From Nitrospinota bacterium (GTDB taxonomy: Bacteria; Nitrospinota; Nitrospinia; UBA9942), in the NCBI GenBank assembly GCA_003489165.1, contig DNJG01000007.1, forward strand, positions 1 through 54,793: a DNA stretch of 54,793 nt, in the 5' to 3' direction. Within the stretch, counting starts at the first letter, position 1. Every line of letters begins with the position of its first letter. Shown here piece by piece: positions 8,817 through 54,630 of the stretch. Under the pieces are notes generated by a model. It made no database searches. It was not told the origin of the DNA and worked only from the letters and a program-made list of their open reading frames with translations. The translations under genes and the position numbers were made by a program.

Positions 8817-9006
8817 AAAGGAACAAAAACCTGATTAACCACAGAGGTCACAGAGAAAGAAAAAAAATAAAGACACTGAAAGACACAGATAAATTATGAT
8901 TAACACAGAAATAAAGAACTATAAAAATCATAAATAATCAGTGTAAATCTGTGTCAAAAAATTTAGTTTTTTCCCTCTGTGTCTCCGTGTCTCTGTGGCA
9001 AATCTT
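8817..9006. repeat. CCACAGAG-type palindromic (MITE-like) repeat, copy A, between cysD and cysN
   Basis: Terminal inverted arrays CCACAGAGGTCACAGAG ... CTCTGTGTCTCCGTGTCTCTGTGG flank an AT-rich core. The core (~150 nt) differs from copy B (14710-14889) at 3 positions by hand alignment. Confidence 0.9.
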
Positions 9007-10952: not shown

Positions 10953-11086
10953 CAACCACAGATAAACACGGATGAACACAGAATTTTTTAGATGCAAGAT
11001 GCAAGAAAAAAATCTTACTTCTGGCTTCTCACCTCTTGCTTCTTGTTTTTCTCTGTGCCTCTGTATCTCAGTGCTTTAATTATGTT
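10953..11086. repeat. CCACAGA-type palindromic repeat, diverged copy F, with internal GATGCAA x2 and degenerate CTTCTGR units
   Basis: Left arm CAACCACAGATAAACACGGATGAACACAGAA; right arm TTCTCTGTGCCTCTGTATCTCAGTG. Confidence 0.7.
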
Positions 11087-11132
11087 TTTGTTCCTATAAG
11101 GTATTTTAACAATTCTAATGGAGGTGATAATT

Positions 11133-14454: not shown

Positions 14455-14470
14455 AGTAATTTTAAAATTT

Positions 14471-15040
14471 GCTGGAGCAGATTATAAGCCGGATTCTGTC
14501 CACCACTTAAAGTGGGAGATGACCATTTATCTGCCCTTTATGTCGCCATAAAGGTTTAGCGGCTTACCCGAAGACATCGGACGGGCAGTCCTATCGCCTT
14601 CCTATTTAGCCTTGCTCCGGGTGGGGTTTTCCATGCCCATGATGTCACCACCATGGCGGTGAGCTCTTACCTCGCCTTTTCACCCTTACCCCGCACACCA
14701 TGAAACATGAAAGAACAAAAACATGATTAACCACAGAGGTCACAGAGAAAGAAAAAAAATAAAGACACTGAAAGACACAGATAAATTATGATTAACACAG
14801 AAATAAAGAACCATAAAAACCATAAATAATCAGTGTAAATCTGTGTCAAAAAATTTAGTTTTTCTTCTGTATTCTCTGTGGCAAATTTTCATGCTTCATT
14901 ATATGTGCGGGGCGGTATATTTTCTGTGGCACTATCCGTAAGGTCGCCCCTCCTTCCTGTTAGGAAGCACCCTGCCCTCTGGAGTCCGGACTTTCCTCCC
15001 CCACACTTATGTGTGGGAGCGGCCATCCATCTGCTCCAGC
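14471..15040 (-). ncRNA. rnpB: RNase P RNA, bacterial type A, with a ~180-nt repeat insertion in P12
   Basis: P1 GCUGGAGCAG pairs with CUGCUCCAGC. GGGAGGAAAGUCCGGACUCC, AAGGGUGAAAAGGCGAGGUAAGAGCUCACC, CCCACCCGGAGCAAGGCUAAAUAGG and ACAGAAUCCGGCUUAUAA all occur in canonical order on the minus strand. Confidence 0.9.
14710..14889. repeat. CCACAGAG-type palindromic repeat, copy B, inserted in the rnpB P12 loop
   Basis: Near-identical to copy A, but the right arm has one fewer 8-mer unit. Flanked by the P12 arms CCCCGCACA / UGUGCGGGG. Confidence 0.9.
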
Positions 15041-15054
15041 AAATAAATAATACA

Positions 15055-15144
15055 GACTAAAAGTCTAAGAGTCTAAGAGAAAATGATAAAAATCAAATGA
15101 TTTAAACTTTTAGACTTTTAGACCCTTAGTCTCTTAGACTCTTA
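15055..15144. repeat. Inverted tandem-octamer hairpin (AGTCTAAG x2 ... CTTAGACT-like x4) between the Zn-ribbon gene and rnpB
   Basis: AAGTCTAAGAGTCTAAGAG ... CTTTTAGACTTTTAGACCCTTAGTCTCTTAGACTCTTA. Probable stem-loop or terminator on the minus-strand transcript. Confidence 0.8.
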
Positions 15145-15874: not shown

Positions 15875-16393
15875 TTAAAATCTATTCAGTATGTCCTCTA
15901 TAAGTTTTTTGTTCAATTCACCCTTAAATTTTTCCTTTATCCTCCCTTCACGGTCAATGAAAAATGTAACCGGCAGCCCAATCACTCCATAATCCATTGA
16001 TACCTTCAGATCAGAGTCTATAAGTATAGTAAATTCTACCCCTTTTTCTGATATAAATTTTTTGACCCTGTCATAACTTTCATTGTAATTTATACCTATA
16101 ACCTCAATACCCTCACCCTTTCTATTATTATAAACCTCTTGTAAGAGAGGCATCTCATTGACACAGGGCGGACACCATGTTGCCCAAAAATTGAGCATAA
16201 CCTTTTTACCTTTGTAATAATCAAGGTTTATAGCCTTTTTGCTTAAATCGGTCAAGGCAAAGTTAGGTGCATAGCTACCAATATTTACATTAGTGTTCTC
16301 ATTATCCCTTTTACATCCTGATATTATTATTGCCAAAAGAAAAATAATGAAGAAAGCAATTTGATTATGCCTGCCGAATTTATCTTTATTCAT
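15875..16393 (-). CDS. TlpA/ResA-family periplasmic thiol:disulfide oxidoreductase (lipoprotein)
   Basis: FWATWCPPCVNEMP thioredoxin motif. Signal peptide with lipobox IISGC. Confidence 0.85.
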   Translation of the reverse strand: MNKDKFGRHNQIAFFIIFLLAIIISGCKRDNENTNVNIGSYAPNFALTDLSKKAINLDYYKGKKVMLNFWATWCPPCVNEMPLLQEVYNNRKGEGIEVIGINYNESYDRVKKFISEKGVEFTILIDSDLKVSMDYGVIGLPVTFFIDREGRIKEKFKGELNKKLIEDILNRF

Positions 16394-19353
16394 CTATATC
16401 CTGCCTTTGAAATATTCTTTATCTTCTCTATCTCGGAATTTATTAAATTCCTCTCCTGTTCTGTAATTTTTAATCCAAGTCCTCTGCTGTAATAGTCCAT
16501 AGCCTTCATTAGGTCAATCTCATAATATGTATATATGCTCCCCAAATTCAGATAAGGACTAAAATATTTTCCATCAAGTGTTATAGCATATTCAAATTCA
16601 TTTACAGCCCTTTTTATATCTTTTTTAGACAGGAATAAAAGTCCTCTGAGATTATAAAGCTGTGGCGTAAACTCATTGTCTCTGTCTAACCCTATACATT
16701 CATTTATAAGCTCAAATCCTTTATCTATCTCTCCTGTAGAAAGAATCCTGTATATACTGTTAATGTTTAAATTTATAAGCTCATATCTTGCATCTGTATT
16801 TTCACTATTAATTTCAGCCGCTTTTCTAAAACTATATACTGCATCCTCAAGGCTGTTATCGTTTACACCAACCTGCCCTTTTAAAAAATAAGTGTAAGAA
16901 TTAAAATATTTTTCTATTTCTTCACCTTTGTTTGAGTCCAAATCTCGGACTAATCCTTTTACAGATTTCCGATATTTCAGCATATTCAGCAGATTCTTCC
17001 CCTTTATAGATGTCCCAACATGATGAATCCTCGGTGCTGTAAATTCTACATAGGGGTTATTATCAGTAACAATAGGAACTCCATCAATAAATTTATGTAA
17101 ATCTTCTTCATCCATCATAAATGTAGAGAGGAGTTGAAATGGATTGAATATTCCTATCTCTTTCAGACTTTCCTGTATCTTTTTATTATTAAGCCTTTCC
17201 CTGAAATTCTCAAAATCTATTGCCAATTTTTTATCAGAACCTATCATAATTGCATCCCATTTTGTAAACCACATTGTGGAATGCGGAAATACAGACACAA
17301 AAGTTGAAACCAGCATCTTAAAATCATCTTCTGAAAGATGATGAAGGGGTATCCAATGAGATACCATTCCGCCCTCTTTAAGACGGGATTTACAGAGCAT
17401 ATAATACTCCCTGCTGTAGAGATTCACAATACCTGCATTTGACGGCGGGGGGGGTTCTGATGTGATAAGGTCAAATTTTTTATCTGTTGTCAGCAGAAAA
17501 TTTCTCCCATCCTCAATAATCATTTTAAATCTGCTGTTATTAAGTATGTCCCTGTTTCCATCAGAGAAATATCTGCCGCCGTTGAATACCTCTCTTGATA
17601 TATCTACTGCATATATCTCACTGACATTGTGGTCACCGACAGCCCCTGCCGTTGAACCAGTTCCAAAACATATAATCAGTGCATCCTTTGGGTCAGGATG
17701 GAATAAGAGGGGGAGATGCGCCTGAAGCCTCTCAAGTTGTAATGCACCCCTGAATTCACCTGCAATAGGGTCTCCATTTATCCAGAGCCTCTTTACAGGT
17801 TTTCTAAAGGGGGTAAGGTCTGTCTCCTGAGATGAGACAAGGACAGTCCCTGCTATCCCTTCTTTATAATAAAGTATTTCATTCCCTTTATCTATCTTCC
17901 CGATGCTGATTAATTTTGGAATATCTCCCGTTCTTAATATAAAAATAATAATGATAACACTGATAGTAATAGATAATATGGAAATAAAATATCGGGCAAT
18001 GCTTCTTTTGCTTATATAAATCAGGATAATACCAAATAGAAGGGGAATAGCTCCTGTCCATATGATAGATTTCTGTATTCCTATGAGGGGAAGAAGTATA
18101 AAGCCTGCAGAAAAAGAACCTATTATTGCACCTATAGTATTAATCAGATATACCTTTCCTATACCTTTCCCGATATCTTTCATCTCAAATTTCAGGGTTT
18201 GAGCTACTGCAGGAAAACTTGCTCCCATTAATAGTGTAGGAATAATCATTATGAAAAATGCCATTAAAAAGGTTGCAAACATTCTCCCTTGCCAATGTCC
18301 GATACCAACAAATTGTGATGCCCATGAAATGAAGTTATTGAGCTGAGAGGCAATGAAATTGTGATTTGCAAACAGAAGGAGAGATAAAAATCCCATCAGA
18401 CCAATCAAAATTTGAAAGACTGCAAAAATGGTTACCAAGTTCTCACTTTTAAAAAATTTAGGTCTTAAATTCCGAAATCTAAAATCCGAAATCCAAAATC
18501 CAAATATAAGGCTCCCACCTGCTATACCGAGGAGAAATGTAAATAGGATTATTGAAAACGCATATATGGTATTATCCAGAATCAGTATAAGAACCCTTGT
18601 CCATAACACCTCATAGGAGAGTGCCGCCATTCCTGAGAAACCAAAGGCAAGAAGGATTAAGGTCGATAGTTGGGAGTTGGGAGTTGGGAGTTTTGAATCT
18701 TGAGTTTTTAGTTCTGACTTCTGACTTCTGACTTCTGACTTCTGACTTATTATATACGCCCCTCCCCCTGCAATTAAATTCAAGAGGGCAGCTGAATAAA
18801 GCGATTGTGTAACACCAATAACCTCTATCAGGTAAAAACCTGTAATAATACATCCTGCAACTGCCCCGAAGGTATTTAAGGAATATATAACTCCTGTATC
18901 AACCCCTATTTTGTTCTCACTCTTTATAAGAAATCTTGATATAACAGGAAGCGTCCCCCCCATCATAGTTGTTGGAAATATCAGGATTAAAGAAGATATT
19001 AGAAATCTTTCTGCAGAGAGAAGTAAAAAGCTTCCCCCTGTTAATACATGAAGTTTTACATACAGCCATTCTGTAAGTGAAAAAATATTTGGCAATAAGA
19101 TAGCGTATAAACCTATTAGAATCTCAAGAAGTGCATATACCTTCAGAGGATTCCCCCTCTTATCTATGAGTCTGCCAAAGATATATCCCCCTATACCAAG
19201 CCCTGCCATAAATACGGTAAGTACAGTGCTTATTGCAAATGAGGATACACCAAATACGAGTGAAAGGAGGCGGGTCCAGACGATTTCATAGATAAGCCCT
19301 GAGGCGCCTGATAGGAAAAATATGAGGAGGATTAAAGGTCTTGCATAGTTCAT
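16390..19353 (-). CDS. Fused polytopic membrane / spermidine-synthase-like (SAM-MTase fold) / TPR protein
   Basis: 987 aa. The N-terminus (FFLSGASGLIYEIVWTRLLS) is typical of fused MFS-like spermidine synthase proteins. A central aminopropyltransferase-like block (ICFGTGSTAG, DLITSEPPPP) is followed by C-terminal TPR-like repeats. Confidence 0.7.
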   Translation of the reverse strand: MNYARPLILLIFFLSGASGLIYEIVWTRLLSLVFGVSSFAISTVLTVFMAGLGIGGYIFGRLIDKRGNPLKVYALLEILIGLYAILLPNIFSLTEWLYVKLHVLTGGSFLLLSAERFLISSLILIFPTTMMGGTLPVISRFLIKSENKIGVDTGVIYSLNTFGAVAGCIITGFYLIEVIGVTQSLYSAALLNLIAGGGAYIISQKSEVRSQKSELKTQDSKLPTPNSQLSTLILLAFGFSGMAALSYEVLWTRVLILILDNTIYAFSIILFTFLLGIAGGSLIFGFWISDFRFRNLRPKFFKSENLVTIFAVFQILIGLMGFLSLLLFANHNFIASQLNNFISWASQFVGIGHWQGRMFATFLMAFFIMIIPTLLMGASFPAVAQTLKFEMKDIGKGIGKVYLINTIGAIIGSFSAGFILLPLIGIQKSIIWTGAIPLLFGIILIYISKRSIARYFISILSITISVIIIIFILRTGDIPKLISIGKIDKGNEILYYKEGIAGTVLVSSQETDLTPFRKPVKRLWINGDPIAGEFRGALQLERLQAHLPLLFHPDPKDALIICFGTGSTAGAVGDHNVSEIYAVDISREVFNGGRYFSDGNRDILNNSRFKMIIEDGRNFLLTTDKKFDLITSEPPPPSNAGIVNLYSREYYMLCKSRLKEGGMVSHWIPLHHLSEDDFKMLVSTFVSVFPHSTMWFTKWDAIMIGSDKKLAIDFENFRERLNNKKIQESLKEIGIFNPFQLLSTFMMDEEDLHKFIDGVPIVTDNNPYVEFTAPRIHHVGTSIKGKNLLNMLKYRKSVKGLVRDLDSNKGEEIEKYFNSYTYFLKGQVGVNDNSLEDAVYSFRKAAEINSENTDARYELINLNINSIYRILSTGEIDKGFELINECIGLDRDNEFTPQLYNLRGLLFLSKKDIKRAVNEFEYAITLDGKYFSPYLNLGSIYTYYEIDLMKAMDYYSRGLGLKITEQERNLINSEIEKIKNISKAGYR
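18668..18748. repeat. In-frame heptamer arrays (TTGGGAG x3 and CTTCTGA x5) inside the 987-aa gene
   Basis: AGTTGGGAGTTGGGAGTTGGGAG at 18668-18690 and TTCTGAC x5 at 18712-18748. Together they encode ...QKSEVRSQKSELKTQDSKLPTPNSQLST... Confidence 0.9.
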
Positions 19354-19357
19354 AAAA

Positions 19358-19425
19358 AGTTTCAGAATATCAAAGTGTCAAAGTGTCAAAGACTTTTAAC
19401 TCTGATACTCTGAAACTTTGACACT
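19358..19425. repeat. Inverted tandem-octamer hairpin (TCAAAGTG x2.5 ... CTTTGACAC)
   Basis: AGTTTCAGAATATCAAAGTGTCAAAGTGTCAAAG ... CTCTGAAACTTTGACACT, between the propeller gene and the 987-aa gene. Confidence 0.75.
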
Positions 19426-20551
19426 ATTTCTTTAATATCTCCTCCGGCGGGCTCACCTTAACTTTCAAATCTGACTTTTTTGATATGCTTCCGATTTTAG
19501 ACAAATTCAGCTTGCCTATCTTATTTCCTGACATCATTGTAAACCATATGTTATTTTTTAAATCTGCCGTTATTGCAAGCGGCTGACTATCCTTCATCGG
19601 TATATCGTATTCTTTAAAAATTTCTGAATCAGGGTCAAATCTTACAATCTTGTTTTCATATCTCAAGGCAAGCCAAATATTATTCTCTTTATCTATAGCC
19701 ATACGCTGCGCCCCCTTTTTCCCCGGAATTGGAAAGTCCTTGAATTCACCCGTGGCGGGATTAAGTCTTACCAGCTTTTTGTCCTTCAGCCTGCAAAACC
19801 ATACATTCCCTTTTGAATCAATTGCAGTGCCTATAGGCATACTCAATGGCTGTTTTAGTTCATACTCCTTGAATTTTCCATTTTCATGATTTATCATTCC
19901 AATTTTGTTTCCACCCTTTTGAACAAACCACATATTTCCTTTTGAATCACTGGCGAGACCTGATGACTGGCTCATGGGGGTAGGGATATCATATTCCTTA
20001 AACCTCTCCTTAATCCCCTCTTTTTGAGAAGAGGGTGGGGTAAACTTAGTTATTTTATTTCTGTTCCACTCTACAAACCATACATTGCCCTTTGAATCTG
20101 CCGATATAGAGGCAGGATTACTCTGTGGAACCCGAAGGTCAAACTCCTCAAACTCCAATGTCCGTGTATTAAACTTTCCAAGCTGATTGCCTTCCTGCTC
20201 CGTGAACCACAGGTTATTATCTTTATCTATTGTCATATCCGTAGATTCACTTTTAGTTGTAGGTATCTCAAACTCCTCAAAGATATTTTTTGAAGGGTCC
20301 AACTTTCCAATCTTATTTGCACTATATTCCAGGACCCATACGATACCAGAACGGTCTACAGCAATATCAGTCGGAGAACTTAAAGGGGTAAGAATGGGAA
20401 ATTCTTCAAAAGGGGTATCTTCGGAGGCAAAGGCAAGAAAAACAGAAGACAGAAGACAGAAGACAGAGAACAGAGAACAGAGAACAGAGGACAGAAGAAA
20501 AACTCTAACTTCTGACTTCTGACTTCTGACTTCTGACTTCTTATTTCTCAT
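19424..20551 (-). CDS. Secreted Vgb (streptogramin-lyase-like)/NHL-type beta-propeller protein
   Basis: Repeated blades of the form D..GN.WF.E...NKIGK......F.EY.IP. The likely start is the ATG at 20551, which overlaps the upstream stop (ATGA) and gives MRNKKSEVRSQKSEVR + hydrophobic core + AFA|SE. The tracked start at 20629 lies inside the upstream gene. Confidence 0.65.
   Translation of the reverse strand: MRNKKSEVRSQKSEVRVFLLSSVLCSLFSVFCLLSSVFLAFASEDTPFEEFPILTPLSSPTDIAVDRSGIVWVLEYSANKIGKLDPSKNIFEEFEIPTTKSESTDMTIDKDNNLWFTEQEGNQLGKFNTRTLEFEEFDLRVPQSNPASISADSKGNVWFVEWNRNKITKFTPPSSQKEGIKERFKEYDIPTPMSQSSGLASDSKGNMWFVQKGGNKIGMINHENGKFKEYELKQPLSMPIGTAIDSKGNVWFCRLKDKKLVRLNPATGEFKDFPIPGKKGAQRMAIDKENNIWLALRYENKIVRFDPDSEIFKEYDIPMKDSQPLAITADLKNNIWFTMMSGNKIGKLNLSKIGSISKKSDLKVKVSPPEEILKK
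20443..20540. repeat. Heptamer arrays (CAGAAGA x3, CAGAGAA x3, ... then CTTCTGA x4-5) that encode the signal peptide of the 19424-20551 gene
   Basis: Read directly: CAGAAGACAGAAGACAGAAGACAGAGAACAGAGAACAGAGAACAGAGGACAGAAGA ... CTTCTGACTTCTGACTTCTGACTTCTGACTTC. Confidence 0.9.
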
Positions 20552-21855
20552 ACTGCCTTTTTCTTTACAAAAACCAAAGCTGATATGACAACAACCACTA
20601 TGAGCAGTATGCCTGATATATAAACCCATAAAGGCACTTTACCACCAACTGCCGATTTCTGCATCTCTTCTGCATACCTTTTATCCCCTTCCGAGTGTTC
20701 ATGTTTGTGTGCCTCATGAATTTCAGGAACAGAAGAAATAACTAATTGTCCAATCTTATTTGCCCCTCTCTCATTCTCTGTAAACCATATATCCCCTTTT
20801 GAATCTATAGCCATATTCATAGGCTGGGAATTTATTGTTGGTATGTCAAAATCGTGGAATGATGCAGAATGCGGCTCAAAGTAGCCTATTTTATTCATCA
20901 TATCATCTATATACCAAAGCCTCCCTGTTTTATCAAATATGATGCTCTGCGGAACGCTATTATAACCGGGGAGTACTGCCTCACTCATCATACCCGTTGA
21001 CGGGACAAGCATTGTAACCTTGTGGCTGTGAAGCTGTGGAAACCATATATTTTTTGAGTTGTCAATCAATATCTTACCCGGTCGGCTTAGAGGGGTAACT
21101 ATCGGAAATACCTTATAGGTTTTGGTCTTTGGGTTAAACCTTCCTATCTCATTCATTGCCACATCGCTAATCCAGATATTGTCTTCTTCATCTACTGCAA
21201 TGCCTGCGGGATGACTACTGGATTTAAGGTCATATTCAACAACCTTCTTTATCTTAAAGTCAAGCTTTCCGATTTTACCGCTATTCCATTCAATAAACCA
21301 CACATTACCCTCTGAATCCAGTGCTAAGTCATTGGGACTGCTCTGTGGTGTCGGTATATCATATTCTACAAATTTTTCTGTGGATGGTTCAAAACTGCCG
21401 ATTTTATTGCCAATCTGCTCCACAAACCATAATTTGTCATTTTTATCTATAATAATGGCGCCCGGACTGCCAAGAGATACATCATAAACCTCTTTTGGAG
21501 GGGTTTTTTCTGTAGGTGAATATTTCCAGTTACTCTTTGGAATTGATGCCGTAGATGGTATCTGATATTCTTTGAAGGTCTGATTTACAGGATCAAATTT
21601 AACTATCTTATTTGTAACCTGTGCTGTAAACCAAATATTATCTTTTGAGTCAACCACTATCCCGAATGGATGGCTGTAAGGGGTTGGGATTACATATTCA
21701 TTAATTACAGGTCCTTCGCCATTTCTTGCAGAAGGAGCAATTTTGGTATCCCCATGCATTGAATGCTGTCCCTGTTCGTCTCCCGTAGATATATTAACAA
21801 GGAGATATAAAAATAGAAATGCAAACAATAAGAATATTTTTTTAAATGGATTCAT
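20548..21855 (-). CDS. Vgb/NHL-type beta-propeller protein with N-terminal signal peptide, His-rich linker and C-terminal membrane anchor
   Basis: 435 aa with the same blade repeat as its neighbour. It has an HSMHGD motif after the signal peptide, then EIHEAHKHEHSEGD followed by a TM helix (LWVYISGILLIVVVVISALVFV) and KKKAV. Confidence 0.65.
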   Translation of the reverse strand: MNPFKKIFLLFAFLFLYLLVNISTGDEQGQHSMHGDTKIAPSARNGEGPVINEYVIPTPYSHPFGIVVDSKDNIWFTAQVTNKIVKFDPVNQTFKEYQIPSTASIPKSNWKYSPTEKTPPKEVYDVSLGSPGAIIIDKNDKLWFVEQIGNKIGSFEPSTEKFVEYDIPTPQSSPNDLALDSEGNVWFIEWNSGKIGKLDFKIKKVVEYDLKSSSHPAGIAVDEEDNIWISDVAMNEIGRFNPKTKTYKVFPIVTPLSRPGKILIDNSKNIWFPQLHSHKVTMLVPSTGMMSEAVLPGYNSVPQSIIFDKTGRLWYIDDMMNKIGYFEPHSASFHDFDIPTINSQPMNMAIDSKGDIWFTENERGANKIGQLVISSVPEIHEAHKHEHSEGDKRYAEEMQKSAVGGKVPLWVYISGILLIVVVVISALVFVKKKAV

Positions 21856-21880
21856 AGAAAAGTAATAGGATTTGAAAATT

Positions 21881-21935
21881 CAAGGGTTCGAGGGTTCCAG
21901 TAAAGCACTTGACCCCTTGACCCCTTATACCCTTA
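21881..21935. repeat. Inverted tandem-octamer hairpin (CAAGGGTT/CGAGGGTT ... GACCCCTT x2, ATACCCTT)
   Basis: Read directly; imperfectly complementary arms between the subunit IV/heme c gene and the propeller gene. Confidence 0.7.
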
Positions 21936-22654: not shown

Positions 22655-22775
22655 GAAAAAATCTAATTAAACCACTGAGACACTGAGGCACAGAGAAAAA
22701 CTTACAACCTGCAACTGTTGTCCGTTGTTTGTTGTCGGTTCTTCATCTCCGTGTCTCCGTGCCTCTGTGGTAATT
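22655..22775. repeat. CACTGAG/CACAGAG-type palindromic repeat, copy D, between the two cytochrome b halves
   Basis: AACCACTGAGACACTGAGGCACAGAG ... CTCCGTGTCTCCGTGCCTCTGTGG. Confidence 0.8.
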
Positions 22776-27605: not shown

Positions 27606-28565
27606 CTACACCCCCATTATCTCCCTTTTCCTTAAAAGATAAAGGAAGTATGGTGCGCCAATTATAGCAGTAATAATCCCTGCTGGAATTTCTGTCGGCG
27701 ATACAATTGTCCTGCCGATTGTATCTGCCATACACAAAAAAGTCCCTCCAACCAAGGCAGACAGGGGCAATAGAAATCTGCAATCAGAACCAACGAAAAA
27801 CCTGATTATGTGAGGTATCAGAAGCCCTATAAAACCTACAACACCGCCTAATGATACGGATGATGCAGTCATAAGCCCTACTGAAATAAACAAAATCAAT
27901 CTTTCTTTAAATGGAGAAAAACCAAGGCTGTAGGCAATCTCGTCTCCCAGTATCAGTGCATTTAAACCCTTTACCCGCCAGATGGAAAGCAGAAAACCTG
28001 CAAAGATAAAAATTAATCCATATGGAATCAGCGACCAATCTGCCATTGATAAATCTCCAAATATCCAAAGCATCGCCCTTTTTAATCCCTCATCCGCAGA
28101 GATGCTCATAAGAAGCATAAGGATTGAAGAAAAGAGAAAACCTATTCCAATACCTGCAAGTAGTAATCTCTCAGGGAGAAGCCCTCCCCTTTTATATCCC
28201 ATAATACCAACTGCAATGCCGGTAGAAATTGCACCAATAAAGGCAAGCAATGGAATTGTAAAGAGTCCAAATATAATTTTTCCAAATATAAGACCTGCGG
28301 CAGCCGTCAGTGTTGCACCGCTTGATATGCCAAGTATATAGGGGTCTGCAAGTGGATTTCTAAGAAGCCCTTGAAGTATAGCCCCTGATACACCAAGGGC
28401 TGACCCCATAAGTATAGAAACGATAACACGCGGAAGCCTTATTGAGAAAATGATTTGACTGCCTGTGTCATCCAGATTGAATGGGTTAATAAACTTTGGC
28501 CATATAAAGACAGAAACAAACAATATGCAGATAGAGACAATAATCAATAATATAATCTTTCTCAT
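27606..28565 (-). CDS. btuC: FecCD/BtuC-family ABC permease
   Basis: 319 aa polytopic protein with typical FecCD motifs (RLPRV, NPLADPYILGISSGA, GAPYFLYLL). Confidence 0.88.
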   Translation of the reverse strand: MRKIILLIIVSICILFVSVFIWPKFINPFNLDDTGSQIIFSIRLPRVIVSILMGSALGVSGAILQGLLRNPLADPYILGISSGATLTAAAGLIFGKIIFGLFTIPLLAFIGAISTGIAVGIMGYKRGGLLPERLLLAGIGIGFLFSSILMLLMSISADEGLKRAMLWIFGDLSMADWSLIPYGLIFIFAGFLLSIWRVKGLNALILGDEIAYSLGFSPFKERLILFISVGLMTASSVSLGGVVGFIGLLIPHIIRFFVGSDCRFLLPLSALVGGTFLCMADTIGRTIVSPTEIPAGIITAIIGAPYFLYLLRKREIMGV

Positions 28566-28573
28566 TCTTTTTA

Positions 28574-29527
28574 TTACTTCTGGTTTCTTGCTTCTGGCTT
28601 CTGACCTCTATTTAAATACCCTTTCAACTCTTCAATCCCCTCTACTATCCTCGGTCCAAGCCTGTAAAGTGCATCACCCGTATAATAAACCCTCCCATTC
28701 TTTACAGCCTTAAGCATGCCAAGTTTTTCTAAAAGCCCTTTTGAGAGTTCCTTTGTATCAGCACCCATACTCTTTCCTATTAAAATGGCATTAGGTGAAC
28801 GATGTATAACCTCCTCAATTGAATATTTAGGATACCCTCCCACGACATCAGATGCAATATTCTCCCAGCCAAGCAATTGTAGGGCATCATCAATTGTTGT
28901 GCCATGTCCTGCTACAAGCAGAGGCTCGGGCCAGACAATAAAGAGAGCCTTTCCTTTAACTTCTGGCTTCTGACTTCCAGCTTCTGACTTCTGAAGTTTG
29001 TTTTCTATCTCTTCTGCAAGTTTATTCGCCCTTTCTCCTGCACCGAGGGTAATACCTAACTCCCTTATTCCTTCTGACAGTTCAGAAAGCCGCCTTGCCC
29101 TGAATACATAGGTCTGTATTCCAAGTTGTTTCAACCTCTCTTCAAACCCCTTTGGATTTCCATCTGTAGTCATTACAACAATATCTGGCTTCATAGAGAC
29201 AACGGCCTCAAGGGATGGATTAGACATACCTCCGATTTTAGGCTTCTCTTTTGCTCGAGGCGGGTAATCGCAGAAATTGGTTACCGCTAAAATCTTATCT
29301 TCAAGCTCAATGGCATAGAGAATCTCAGTGATGTTAGGTGCAAGTGATACAATTCTCTCAATGGGTGAGGAGAAAGCTGTGCTTGATAAAAATATAAATA
29401 TAATCAACCACAGAGAACCCAAAGAAAGAAAATAAAAAAATAAATTATATATATTGTCTAAAGAAAACCTGCTTCCTATTTGATTTAATATCTTTATTTT
29501 TCTCTGTGTCCTCTGTGGTAAATACAT
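28574..29527 (-). CDS. btuF: Periplasmic cobalamin/siderophore-binding protein (BtuF-like); start codon uncertain
   Basis: RIVSLAPNITEILYAIELEDKILAVTNFCDYP is typical of class III SBPs. The 5' ~120 nt run through repeat copy G. The C-terminal tail and an internal linker are encoded by CTTCTGR heptamers. Confidence 0.75.
   Translation of the reverse strand: MYLPQRTQRKIKILNQIGSRFSLDNIYNLFFYFLSLGSLWLIIFIFLSSTAFSSPIERIVSLAPNITEILYAIELEDKILAVTNFCDYPPRAKEKPKIGGMSNPSLEAVVSMKPDIVVMTTDGNPKGFEERLKQLGIQTYVFRARRLSELSEGIRELGITLGAGERANKLAEEIENKLQKSEAGSQKPEVKGKALFIVWPEPLLVAGHGTTIDDALQLLGWENIASDVVGGYPKYSIEEVIHRSPNAILIGKSMGADTKELSKGLLEKLGMLKAVKNGRVYYTGDALYRLGPRIVEGIEELKGYLNRGQKPEARNQK
29402..29524. repeat. 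CCACAGAG-type palindromic repeat, copy G, lying within the annotated 5' end of btuF
   Basis: AATCAACCACAGAGAACCC ... TTTCTCTGTGTCCTCTGTGGTAAAT. Confidence 0.8.
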
Positions 29528-31519: not shown

Positions 31520-31624
31520 TTTTCCCTCCCTCGAGAAAATTTAGTTTGTTTTGGCAGAGTCTCTTGTTCGTGTTTTTAACCCATAACTCCGAACTCCAAA
31601 CTCTGAACTTGTTTTGGCTTGGAT

Positions 31625-31775
31625 AGGTCTTCCGGCTTAAGGGCTACCTACTTACCTGCCTTCCCATCATGGCATTACCCATGACAGTGGCATGTAGGTT
31701 TTCGTTCCCTTTTACGGCTGCGGGGCAGCGGAGGATTTTCACCTCTCTTCCCTGGCATCCAGCCACCAATAATTG
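31625..31775 (-). promoter_or_regulatory. Cobalamin (B12) riboswitch
   Basis: Minus strand reads ...GGTGGCTGGATGCCAGGGAAGAGAGGTGAAAATCCTCCGCTGCCCCGCAGCCGTAAAAGGGAACG...ATGCCACTGTCATGGG...GGGAAGGCAGG. This covers the conserved GGTGAAAATCC core and the B12 box GCCACTG. Confidence 0.85.
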
Positions 31776-31919
31776 TCTTTACTTCTTACTGTTTAAGTTA
31801 TCACCTCCTTCCACTAACACCGATTCACTGTTTTTATATTTAAACAGCTTTTTAATTTTTTTGTCAAGTTTTTTATCTCTTTTCCATTATGGTTTTTAAT
31901 GCCTGACCCCATAAATTGA

Positions 31920-37770: not shown

Positions 37771-38889
37771 ATGAAACAACATATAATTCCAATATTCATT
37801 CCATATTCAGGCTGTCCCCACCGCTGTATCTTTTGCAATCAAAATAAGATTGCTGGAGAAAATATATATTTTAATACAGAAACAATAAGGAAAACTATTG
37901 ATAACCGGCTCTCCTTATCATCTGTCAGCTATTGGCTATCCGCTATTGGCAGCAGACAGGTTGCATTCTATGGAGGCAGTTTCACTGCCATCCCCTTAGA
38001 AAGGCAGGAGAGTCTCCTGTCTTCTGTATTACCCTATTTAAACAATAGAGTAATTGACAGCATAAGATTATCTACAAGACCTGATAGTATAACTGTTGAA
38101 AATCTTGCACTCTTAAAGAGATATAAAGTTAAGACTGTTGAACTTGGTGTTCAGTCAATGGATAACTCTGTTTTATCAGTGTCGGAAAGGGGGCATTCAG
38201 CAGCTGAAGTGAGGAGTTCTTGCAAACTCCTTAAATCCCACGGTTTTGAGGTAGGAATCCAGATTATGCCGGGTCTTCCCGGTGATACATTTGAAAGCTC
38301 ATTATATACTGCGGATGAGGTTATAAAACTTAAACCCGATTTTGTGAGGATATACCCGGCAGTTGTTATAAAGAATACAGGGCTTGCTGATTTGTATCTA
38401 AGTGGTTCTTTTAAACCCTTGAGCCTTGGCGATGCTGTAAGACTGGCTAAAAATCTGCTTGTCAGGTTTGAGGTCAATAATATTCCTGTCATCCGAATAG
38501 GACTCCAGCCTACTTCATCATTATTAGAAAAAGATGTCATTTTAGACGGGCCATTTCATCCTGCTTTCAGACAATTAGTAGAATCAGCGATAGCCTATGA
38601 AATGATGAGGTATGCAATATACAGAAGTCAGAAGTTAAAACATGGTAGTTTTTTTATCCCATCCATTGAATTATCCAACTTCATAGGACAAAAAAGGGAA
38701 GTTATAAAAAAAATAGAATCTGAGTTTGATATTAAGGTTGATGTAAAGCCTGACAGCAGGCTTAAACCAGGAGAGTTTGATTTTGACAACAGCCTTAAAA
38801 AAATACACATTAAAAGAAAAGAGGTTTTAAAAGAATTTCTTTCCTCAACAGCTGCAAACTATGCAATTACAGGTAACAGAAATTTTTAA
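37771..38889 (+). CDS. Radical SAM protein, Elp3-like family
   Basis: IPIFIPYSGCPHRCIFCNQ (CxxxCxxC at the extreme N-terminus), as in the Elp3-like radical-SAM group. Confidence 0.65.
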   Translation: MKQHIIPIFIPYSGCPHRCIFCNQNKIAGENIYFNTETIRKTIDNRLSLSSVSYWLSAIGSRQVAFYGGSFTAIPLERQESLLSSVLPYLNNRVIDSIRLSTRPDSITVENLALLKRYKVKTVELGVQSMDNSVLSVSERGHSAAEVRSSCKLLKSHGFEVGIQIMPGLPGDTFESSLYTADEVIKLKPDFVRIYPAVVIKNTGLADLYLSGSFKPLSLGDAVRLAKNLLVRFEVNNIPVIRIGLQPTSSLLEKDVILDGPFHPAFRQLVESAIAYEMMRYAIYRSQKLKHGSFFIPSIELSNFIGQKREVIKKIESEFDIKVDVKPDSRLKPGEFDFDNSLKKIHIKRKEVLKEFLSSTAANYAITGNRNF

Positions 38890-39523
38890 AAGCATTCAGG
38901 GGGAATCTTCACTCTCAGGAACCCCCTGTGTATTCATACGGTTAACAGGCTGCAACCTTAGATGTCGCTACTGTGATACAGTCTATGCGTATGAAGGCGG
39001 AGATTGGCTTTCAATAGATGATATACTCTCAAAGGTCGATGATTACAAATGCGACTTAGTAGAAATAACAGGGGGCGAGCCTCTCCTTCAGAATGGTGTA
39101 TATCTTTTGATAAGTGCCTTATTAAAAACAGGTAAATATATCTTGATTGAGACAAATGGGAGTATTGATATTGGAAGGGTTCAAGAGTTCAAGGGTTTAA
39201 GGATTCAAAGACTCAAAATAATCATGGATATCAAATGCCCTGACAGTGGTATGTCAGAAAGGATGAATTGGAGGAATTTAGATAAATTGTATAATAATGA
39301 CGAGGTGAAGTTTGTTATAAGCAGCAGAGGAGATTATGACTGGTCAAAAGAGATAATAAAAAAATATTCACTTACTGATAGATGCCATATTTTAATGTCC
39401 CCTGTTTATGATAATTTGACTGCTGAAGAATTGTCAGGGTGGATACTTAATGATAATCTGAATGTAAGATTGAATCTCCAGATACATAAATACATCTGGG
39501 GTGAATCCGTGAAAGGGGTATAA
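38861..39523 (+). CDS. queE: 7-carboxy-7-deazaguanine synthase
   Basis: EIFKSIQGES, RLTGCNLRCRYCDT, ITGGEPLLQ, ETNGS and a C-terminal LQIHKYIWG. Confidence 0.88.
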   Translation: MQLQVTEIFKSIQGESSLSGTPCVFIRLTGCNLRCRYCDTVYAYEGGDWLSIDDILSKVDDYKCDLVEITGGEPLLQNGVYLLISALLKTGKYILIETNGSIDIGRVQEFKGLRIQRLKIIMDIKCPDSGMSERMNWRNLDKLYNNDEVKFVISSRGDYDWSKEIIKKYSLTDRCHILMSPVYDNLTAEELSGWILNDNLNVRLNLQIHKYIWGESVKGV

Positions 39524-43261: not shown

Positions 43262-43290
43262 TTATGTTTCATAAAGGAAAAAATCCATGA

Positions 43291-43341
43291 ACCAGAATTC
43301 AGAATCCAGAATAAATTCTGACTCCTGACTCCTGAATTCTG
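43291..43341. repeat. Inverted tandem-heptamer hairpin (CAGAATY x3 ... CTCCTGA x2, ATTCTG)
   Basis: ACCAGAATTCAGAATCCAGAATAAATTCTGACTCCTGACTCCTGAATTCTG, between ymdB and metG. Confidence 0.8.
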
Positions 43342-44168: not shown

Positions 44169-44229
44169 GATGAGCTAATGAGTTCAGAAGTTAATGAGTT
44201 AACTCATTAACTCATAAACCCATTAACTC
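44169..44229. repeat. Inverted repeat hairpin built from TAATGAGTT / AACTCATTA units
   Basis: GCTAATGAGTTCAGAAGTTAATGAGTTAACTCATTAACTCATAAACCCATTAACTC. Confidence 0.8.
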
Positions 44230-46867: not shown

Positions 46868-47058
46868 CAAAATTAATCCCCCATCCTATGCCGTATGAAA
46901 AAGAAATTTTGAACCTGGCAAACCAGGTGGGTTCCGCATGGGCTACTTTAGGTTTCCCGCCGAGGCAGGCATACACACCATAGCCACAAATTGGTTCCCA
47001 TTCTAAGCGTAATGGATCAAAAATTCTTCTCCACCTCGTGCATGATAGGGGATTAAAC
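46868..47058 (-). ncRNA. ssrS: Candidate 6S RNA
   Basis: Sits between zapA and 5-FCL, the conserved position of ssrS in E. coli. The closing stem pairs UUAAUCCCCUAUCAUGC with GCAUAGGAUGGGGGAUUAA. The 3'-bubble hairpin CACCUGGUUUGCCAGGUUCAAAA resembles E. coli CACCUUGAACCAAGGGUUCAAGG. Length is ~190 nt and the region is locally GC-richer. Confidence 0.55.
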
Positions 47059-54453: not shown

Positions 54454-54630
54454 GAACAAAAACCTGATTAAACCACTGAGACACTGAGGCACAGAGAGAA
54501 ACAAAAACAAAAAAGATTAAGGAGAAAGGGAGAAGATGGAGAGATAGAGAAAAGGGAAAATAAAATATTTTTTCTACTCCCCATTTCTCTTTATTGTTTT
54601 CCTCTGTGTCTCCGTGCCTGTGCAAATTTT
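54454..54630. repeat. CACTGAG/CACAGAG-type palindromic repeat, copy C
   Basis: It shares GAACAAAAACCTGATTAA at the left end with copy A. The right end (CCTCTGTGTCTCCGTGCCTGTGCAAATTTT) resembles the right arm of copies A and B. The internal sequence differs. Confidence 0.8.

Follow-up and report, generated by a model that had tools for sequence, protein, structure and literature searches.

Translational coupling at an ATGA overlap, with the downstream ribosome-binding site in secondary structure, is textbook operon biology, and the STRR (short tandemly repeated repetitive) heptamers of cyanobacteria are an example of a heptanucleotide repeat system. Repeats in leader-peptide coding regions are known as well: the opa genes of Neisseria carry CTCTT pentamers in the leader-peptide coding region, which give on/off switching (PMC5354566). 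TAACTGA arrays of Beggiatoaceae and cyanobacteria form a lineage-specific heptanucleotide excess, lie mostly in intergenic DNA near starts and change in 7-nt indel steps; only one inverted set is reported there for BOGUAY, and Mrazek's long simple sequence repeats are referred to here as summarised in the same paper (PMC4679880). Borg tandem repeats are described as direct repeats from which intrinsically disordered protein regions arise (bioRxiv 10.1101/2022.05.18.492195). In the present work, a pair of complementary heptamer arrays was analysed in contig DNJG01000007.1 of a Nitrospinota bacterium (assembly GCA_003489165.1; the whole stretch of 54,793 nt is called the window, and all coordinates refer to it unless another locus is named). 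The arrays occupy the 5' coding region of the second of two adjacent beta-propeller genes (gene 1 and gene 2); the focal genes are all on the minus strand. Judged by its sequence, the first 126 nt of gene 2 would encode a Sec-type export signal that is cleaved at AFA↓SE (the arrow marks the predicted cleavage position) or kept as an N-terminal anchor, and gene 2 would be a periplasmic Vgb-lyase-like propeller in a cytochrome b-containing cluster of a groundwater Nitrospinota lineage; the probability of this reading as a whole was put at about 0.72.

The likeness to opa consists in a pyrimidine-rich repeat with a unit indivisible by 3 that encodes the hydrophobic part of a signal and whose unit number can shift the frame. 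The opa system, however, has one direct array with a fixed unit in many copies and documented switching in a host-adapted pathogen, whereas the locus studied here has two complementary arrays that fold as a predicted hairpin, an n-region that is also repeat-encoded, a unit that is replaced between relatives and a sequence that is stable at strain level. TAACTGA and STRR arrays use one or few genome-wide direct units, whereas the units found here mostly belong to their own locus, come in complementary pairs and are in several cases translated. With the Borg repeats so described, the locus shares rapid evolution, independent origin of repeats in intergenic and coding DNA and the formation of new peptide segments at permissive sites; it differs from that description in its 7–8 nt units, the use of three frames, the inverted pairs and a product that would be a functional targeting signal and not a disordered insert. 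As in classical coupling, ATGA is present and a Shine-Dalgarno (SD)-like block and the AUG lie in a predicted stem, but this stem is about 125 nt long, is built from tandem repeats and doubles as signal-peptide coding sequence, and coupling is predicted. The paired complementary arrays, their extension over the whole n- plus h-region and the replacement of the unit are thus what differs from the prior art. A literature search for Nitrospinae array hairpins or heptamer-encoded signal peptides returned nothing specific, and to our knowledge no natural case has been described in which the n- plus h-region is written by complementary tandem arrays.

Heptamer arrays at the 5' end of gene 2

Gene 2 (19424–20551) starts at an ATG (20551–20549) that overlaps the stop codon of gene 1 (TGA, 20550–20548) in an ATGA (20548–20551) with two bases in common, as the sequence-only reading of the window had stated. 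This overlap was kept in every orthologue, the set covering L001-L009, L024-L033 and the outgroup L046 (WIN stands for the window sequence, L numbers for compared loci and P numbers for compared proteins or clusters). The 3' end of gene 1 reads ...AAG GCA GTA TGA, the letters before the gene 2 ATG being AAAGGCAGT. No spacer was present between gene 1 and gene 2, and the entire repeat element is inside the gene 2 coding sequence. An upstream ATG at 20629 (401-aa open reading frame, ORF) was ruled out as the start, with the ATGA start and its context GCAGTATGAG kept in the orthologues; longer protein calls such as P0004 pass through gene 1 in a different frame.

On the minus strand, gene 2 begins with ATG AGA AAT AAG, followed by (AAGTCAG)x4, AAGTTAG, an AGTTTTT link, eight pyrimidine-rich heptamers (in order CTTCTGT, CCTCTGT, (TCTCTGT)x3 and (CTTCTGT)x3) and TTTTCTTGCCTTTGCC↓TCCGAAGAT; the N-terminal translation is MRNKKSEVRSQKSEVRVFLLSSVLCSLFSVFCLLSSVFLAFA↓SEDTP. 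Period-7 arrays occupy codons 4–38, in the 5' coding region and with a unit length indivisible by 3. The 5' arm (20504–20541; (AAGTCAG)x4 plus AAGTTAG; Tandem Repeats Finder (TRF) period 7, 5.4 copies, 96% matches) encodes K5-R16 (KSEVRSQKSEVR) of the basic n-region. The 3' arm (20442–20498; TRF period 7, 8.1 copies, 92% matches) encodes most of the hydrophobic core V17-F38, its units being read across all three frames as LLSSVFC or LCSLFSV with a mean hydropathy of +2.2. The c-region (20426–20437) is the non-repeat sequence CTT GCC TTT GCC, i.e. L39-A40-F41-A42; the signal peptidase I site was predicted after A42, S43 begins at 20425, and cleavage at A42/S43 would leave the semi-tryptic N-terminus SEDTPFEEFPILTPLSSPTDIAVDR. 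The sequence-only reading had derived the n-region from a (TCAGAAG)n array and the hydrophobic core from TCTTCTG/TTCTCTG-type heptamers and had ended the peptide at AFA↓SE; the arms located by TRF agree with both assignments, the peptide was matched exactly by the translation, and A-F-A↓S has small uncharged residues at −3 and −1 (AxA rule) and no Pro at +1.

The n-region (MRNKKSEVRSQKSEVR) has a net charge of +4 in the window, and the best 10-residue Kyte–Doolittle mean is 2.63. At 25 residues, of which six are Ser and two Cys, the hydrophobic stretch V17-F41 is longer than cleaved signal peptides usually have (h-region typically about 7–15); it is shorter in other array types. In the window sequence, no lipobox (L-x-[GAS]-C) precedes either Cys and no RR pair of a twin-arginine translocation (Tat) motif (S/T-R-R-x-F-L-K) was found, so that neither a lipoprotein nor a Tat signal is indicated; L001 and L008 begin with MRRKFP, which is not conserved. 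With a custom array finder, the two arrays were among the three top-scoring of 16 arrays in the window, and 20 shuffles gave 0–1.

Gene 1 (20548–21855, from the ORF list) encodes a 435-aa Vgb-lyase-like beta-propeller (Pfam PF24684, E = 1.3e-51) that carries an ordinary signal peptide, MNPFKKIFLLFAFLFLYLLVNISTG, and is anchored in the membrane at its C-terminus. Gene 2 is its downstream paralogue (35% identity); mature gene 2 (19424–20425; S43-K375 plus stop) is a Vgb-lyase-like beta-propeller without membrane anchor and matched PF24684 (Vgb-lyase-like / NHL-type) from residue 47 with E = 6.4e-63 and 212.7 bits (cut-off 50). Neighbours of the gene pair are cytochrome b, a CxxCH protein and further propellers, and the order cytochrome b, small protein, gene 1, gene 2 and SpeE-like membrane protein was kept among relatives. 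A propeller loop of gene 2 (residues ~171–184, 19999–20041, minus strand; TPPSSQKEGIKERF) is indel-variable between strains, with an HSPP insertion that differs among cluster members and PPHSPPLSKGGIKG in other orthologues. A 111-aa antisense ORF (20187–20522, plus strand; ...KARKTEDRRQKTENREQRTEDRRKTLTSDF) traverses the arrays and is most likely a by-product of stop-free repeats.

Array types and predicted hairpin among orthologues

Orthologues were collected by protein search, with DNA taken from ENA, JGI, Logan, NCBI genomes and JGI metagenomes. Close relatives of gene 2 had 65–82% protein identity, and the named relative genomes are groundwater and Rifle Nitrospinota metagenome-assembled genomes. 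The flanks of the junction were conserved (...AAGAAAAAGGCAGT ATG A... upstream and ...TTTGCC↓TCCGAAGAGACCCCTTTTGAAGAATT downstream, with TTTGCC↓TCCGAAGAG kept in nearly all orthologues), and between them six unrelated heptamer sets were found at one orthologous site. The 5' and 3' arms are AAGTCAG and CTYCTGT in WIN, L025-27, L031 and L033 (type 1), ATGAAGT and TTACTTC in L004, ATGCAGT and TACTGYY in L005, L007, L024 and L028 (type 4), CAAGTTW and TCTTGCA in L006, and WGGCART and TGCCTAC in L009; L001-3, L008 and L029-30 have no 5' arm and the 3' arm CACTCAT. Signal-peptide features were measured on 11 haplotypes: the length from ATG to cleavage site was a multiple of 3 in 11/11 (81–135 nt), net charge ahead of the hydrophobic core was +1 to +6, the best 10-residue hydropathy was 1.9–3.0, and the site was x-F/Y-A↓S, position −3 being A, V, S or I, with Ala always at −1 and Ser at +1. 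Hydrophobic heptapeptides came from five of six 3' arms, against a baseline of 22% expected from composition for stop-free heptamers (binomial p = 0.0026), and from only 4/30 stop-free orientations of other units of the lineage; selection therefore filters the arrays for signal-peptide properties.

The arrays are rapidly replaced between close relatives. The flanks of L006 and L007 were 90–99% identical in DNA, against 48% for the 150 nt before the cleavage site, at a synonymous divergence (dS) of 0.16 in the mature domain. The units ATGCAGT, which overlaps the conserved start context GCAGTATG, and ATGAAGT, which contains the start codon, look locally born; outgroup gene 2 also begins with ATGAAGT. 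Most units across nine loci were found at one or two places only (ACTGCCT is present at three L009 loci), and no fixed genome-wide unit emerged; arrays at the signal site share with other loci just the 7-nt unit, and no extended conservation of the repetitive extragenic palindrome (REP) or miniature inverted-repeat transposable element (MITE) type was seen. Though most arrays are locus-specific, CAGAAGT is the favoured unit in this genome: CAGAAGT dimers with up to two mismatches occurred 19 times in the window against 0.46 expected and at a minimum of at least seven separate loci (11017, 18710–18751, 20443–20542, 28590, 28959–28993, 38622 and 43314–43341).

Translation passes through a heptamer array in each of the three frames, so that every base is once a codon second position; T-rich units are translated to Leu, Phe, Val, Ile and Ser and A-rich complements to Lys, Glu, Gln and Arg. 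Across every heptamer without a stop on either strand, sense and antisense mean hydropathy had r = −0.71, and where one arm was hydrophobic the other arm was polar in 88% of cases versus a 39% baseline. Because sense and antisense hydropathy are opposite, a purine-rich arm with its complement behind it has the intrinsic layout of an n-region and h-region. Blalock and Smith reportedly described hydropathy complementarity of sense and antisense in 1984, and Kaiser et al. are said to have found in 1987, from random replacements of the invertase signal, that signal peptides tolerate near-random sequence. These observations explain how unrelated arrays can act as a signal and how a purine arm and its complement give a polar and then a hydrophobic segment; they are laboratory or theoretical, whereas the series presented here consists of six natural replacements at one orthologous site.

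Inverted arms of 25 nt (20443–20467 and 20511–20535) were 88% complementary, in keeping with the imperfect complementarity of the two arrays read earlier from the letters, and a longer inverted pair of 36 nt was 78% complementary. The segment 20430–20559 (minus strand) was predicted to form an RNA (or single-stranded DNA) hairpin with a minimum free energy of −52.0 kcal/mol and z = −9.6, scored on 20430–20560; a slightly longer segment gave −54.6 kcal/mol and z = −8.0. The SD-like purine block AAGGCAG (20553–20559, minus strand) makes up the 5' foot of the predicted stem, where its pairing partner is CUUGCCUU (20430–20437), which lies in the c-region codons; the stem would enclose the SD-like block, the start codon and all of the signal-peptide coding sequence. 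The hairpin was strong in WIN, L033, L004, L007 and L009 (z −5.6 to −9.0), and no excess structure was found in the signal-peptide region of either the outgroup or gene 1 (z +0.1 and +0.6). An Rfam gathering scan gave no family at 20430–20560. An intrinsic terminator within the operon was ruled out, with no terminator-like site near the arrays on the minus strand. Because the predicted hairpin sequesters the SD-like block and the AUG, gene 2 would be translated mainly by ribosomes that end on gene 1, and it is probably coupled to gene 1 by termination–reinitiation, the stem being melted by the ribosomes that complete gene 1.

Origin of the arrays and alternative explanations

The arrays are translated. 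After the ATGA start, the next in-frame ATG, GTG or TTG is codon 84, within the first propeller blade, and the ratio of nonsynonymous to synonymous substitution rates (dN/dS) of the mature domain was 0.12–0.17 in five orthologue pairs, by which the mature part of gene 2 is judged to be under purifying selection; a full-length propeller is therefore made only by reading both arrays. The reading frame was kept in all but one of roughly 20 independently assembled orthologous loci. That the repeats are untranslated owing to a downstream start, a pseudogene or an assembly artefact is extremely improbable: gene callers at times picked other starts (P0002 an ATG inside the array, P0118 and P0130 internal codons), but P0130 and one P0118 contig were shortened by runs of N and not by biology, the frame was kept across all array types, and the arrays were recovered in independent JGI, ENA, NCBI and Logan assemblies. 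The codon-84 start and the dN/dS values rule out a downstream start or a pseudogene. Both export and a junction lacking a spacer go back to an ancestor, and the arrays are a derived trait specific to this lineage. Cluster and gene1-ATGA-gene2 junction are shared by the outgroup L046, whose gene 2 (351 aa) aligns end to end with the window protein at 38% identity, C-terminal ...PPKELFK included. This gene 2 starts with an ordinary signal peptide free of repeats, MKLAAYFSFLFLLFFHGISASA↓QE, and the gene-2-like homologue P0016 has an ordinary one too. No arrays were found in L046 (11 kb) or L047 (7 kb), and the density of arrays was 3–22 per 10 kb in loci of the lineage and essentially nil in unrelated genomes of similar G+C. 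An outgroup with ATGA, an ordinary signal and no arrays means that the arrays replaced an existing signal; they would have arisen inside, or been copied into, an existing signal-peptide coding segment. In the sequence-only reading, an intergenic hairpin had been absorbed into the downstream frame and had supplied a previously signal-less protein with a de novo export signal. This account draws on the resemblance to spacer hairpins of this genome, on the missing counterpart of gene 1 residues 1–50 in gene 2 and on the presence of the CAGAAGT unit in spacers and other genes, but it is contradicted by the outgroup junction and by P0016, and a spacer at the junction was found in no orthologue, so that we regard it as very unlikely. 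The comparison of orthologues suggested with it returned arrays in loci of the lineage, varied in unit and number, and none in the outgroup. Under the replacement that we prefer, the lineage would build inverted tandem-array hairpins at many gene junctions, and with the spacer absent here (ATGA) the arrays would settle in the only sequence-tolerant coding piece available and overwrite the ancestral ordinary signal peptide. Slippage and templating of one arm on the other, with copying or recombination as a possible addition, would turn the arrays over fast, and selection would retain in-frame, stop-free versions with a basic start, a hydrophobic core and an x-F/Y-A↓S site; the purine-rich array would be read as the basic n-region and its pyrimidine-rich complement as the core, the cleavage region coming from non-repeat sequence.

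The array-encoded helix could alternatively be an uncleaved N-terminal signal anchor that tethers the exported propeller to the inner membrane. With 25 residues, V17-F41 (similar in L033) is enough to span a membrane, and gene 1 is held by a C-terminal membrane helix; x-F/Y-A↓S-E/D, however, was kept in protein and DNA across six array types with variable sequence upstream, other types have short cores (e.g. L005, 27 residues in total from the called start), and the stretch in the window is broken by its Ser and Cys residues, which together make an anchor rather unlikely. Phase variation has to be considered as well, since a coding sequence here opens with arrays whose unit length is indivisible by 3. 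In the WIN-type clade, the length from ATG to cleavage site was 105, 126 or 135 nt and the 5' arm had 2 or 5 units, a 21-nt difference. The slippage-driven variation proposed in the sequence-only reading thus stood for length, which differs between relatives, while on/off switching is hinted at by a single frameshifted contig, L048 (positions 1339–1408 of this locus; ENA ERZ27254869 k141_161538), in which 35 nt (five units) are missing from the 3' array between 22-nt direct repeats. In L048 the frame stays open for 29 codons, and the gene caller took an internal GTG as the start; the gene 1 TGA is in the gene 2 mature frame with no start codon between. This fits a slippage 'off' allele, and assembly collapse is also possible. 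A contingency locus that switches export or expression of gene 2 is doubtful, however: ten full-length members of the P0001 90% cluster (dozens of contigs, many samples) had in essence the one signal peptide, varied by a single substitution, some 20 further contigs keep the frame, the tracts are short, with interruptions and 4–5 perfect units, and the host is a free-living groundwater bacterium. Strain-level copy-number variation in the signal peptide was not found in four 90% clusters, and the two seemingly truncated proteins (P0130 and one P0118 contig) were N-gap artefacts. Replacement of an ordinary signal by arrays that would still direct export remains the preferred reading, and the following points weigh against it. 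Export and cleavage are predicted from rule-of-thumb features of the sequence, and the hydrophobic stretch exceeds that of typical cleaved signal peptides and may be a membrane anchor. Signal type was discordant with the mature-domain tree, WIN (type 1) being nearest to L024 (type 4), and identity profiles were mosaic across the compared loci; recombination therefore contributes, and some of the array diversity may stem from it and not from arrays being born repeatedly in place. The WIN array may have been copied in, CAGAAGT recurring at at least seven other loci of the window. L001 and L008, without the 5' arm, had z about 0, and L006 (z = −0.4) folded no better than shuffles; complementarity of the arms could be a mutational by-product, selection on RNA structure not being demonstrated.

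Arrays elsewhere in the window and in the lineage

Inverted 7–8 nt arrays were located in six nearby spacers (15052–15144, 19358–19425, 21879–21926, 22673–22769, 43282–43335 and 44170–44229), which bears out the earlier remark that the junction has the architecture of the intergenic spacer hairpins of the window. Within the syntenic cluster, array hairpins, each of a distinct unit, occupy nearly every spacer of WIN, L001, L006, L007 and L009; across the whole window, only 10/29 spacers fold at z <= −3. Between gene 2 and the SpeE-like gene, the spacer (19354–19423) forms a hairpin whose outer stem is common to the window, L006 (7653–7774) and L007 (7048–7162), and in L006 and L007 a nested (AGGAAGT)n/(CTGTCYT)n array pair is inserted in the hairpin loop. 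Spacer hairpins thus grow by internal array insertion, as the nested pair within the same outer stem shows.

Arrays were also present in other coding sequences. The SpeE-like protein (987 aa, 16390–19353) contains in-frame arrays at 18665–18748 and 18468–18504 (minus strand), composed of (AAGTCAG)n, (AACTCCC)n and (AAAATCC)n, which encode loop inserts such as SQKSEVRSQKSELKTQDSKLPTPNSQLS; its AAGTCAG insert is conserved and length-variable in L002, L007, L009 and L027, and the unit equals the 5' arm unit of the WIN type 1.8 kb away. The BtuF-like binding protein (28574–29527, minus strand; segments concerned 28440–28630, 28959–28994 and 28577–28603) has degenerate (CAGAAGY)n arrays that encode LQKSEAGSQKPEV and the C-terminal tail QKPEARNQK (followed by the stop codon); the tail array was predicted to pair, across an 8-nt junction, with the pyrimidine-rich codons for the first membrane helix of the permease downstream, which would be a second coding-embedded junction hairpin. 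A cobalamin riboswitch (31605–31777, minus strand) precedes the transporter cluster to which the BtuF-like gene belongs. In a radical-SAM-like ORF (38861–39523), the octamer (AAGGGTTC)x5.8 at 39172–39217 (plus strand) is in frame and encodes GRVQEFKGLRIQRLKI.

Dispersed elements of 45–92 nt occur elsewhere in the window and none was found at the signal-peptide site. The RNase P RNA gene (14469–15038, minus strand; RF00010, 312.8 bits) measures 570 nt for a 367-position model, and its segment 14772–14863 is 97.8% identical to a 92-nt dispersed element at 8880–8971; by this identity, a repeat element appears to be inserted in the essential RNase P ribozyme. A dispersed repeat of 45–49 nt was found in three spacers (22657–22701, 54458–54502 and 11045–11093). 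The 6S RNA (46874–47054, minus strand) overlaps a spurious 179-aa ORF.

It is possible, and put forward here tentatively, that the lineage holds an undescribed mutational or enzymatic process which creates, homogenises and replaces inverted tandem-array hairpins at gene junctions and, at junctions that lack a spacer, writes them into coding DNA; the 125 nt would then be dual-coded, as an RNA stem gating translational coupling and as a working signal peptide. If this is so, an A-rich arm and its complement would form a ready-made signal, and with the six unrelated arrays at one orthologous site nature would have replayed the evolution of a signal peptide. The findings point to a lineage-specific repeat-generating process that has also put inserts into other proteins and, it appears, an element into RNase P RNA. 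The signal-peptide site has been rewritten six or more times among orthologues with its export features kept. The series provides a natural set of variants for testing the minimal needs of a Sec signal, and through the opposite sense/antisense hydropathy a nucleic-acid hairpin can become a targeting signal by simple physical means.

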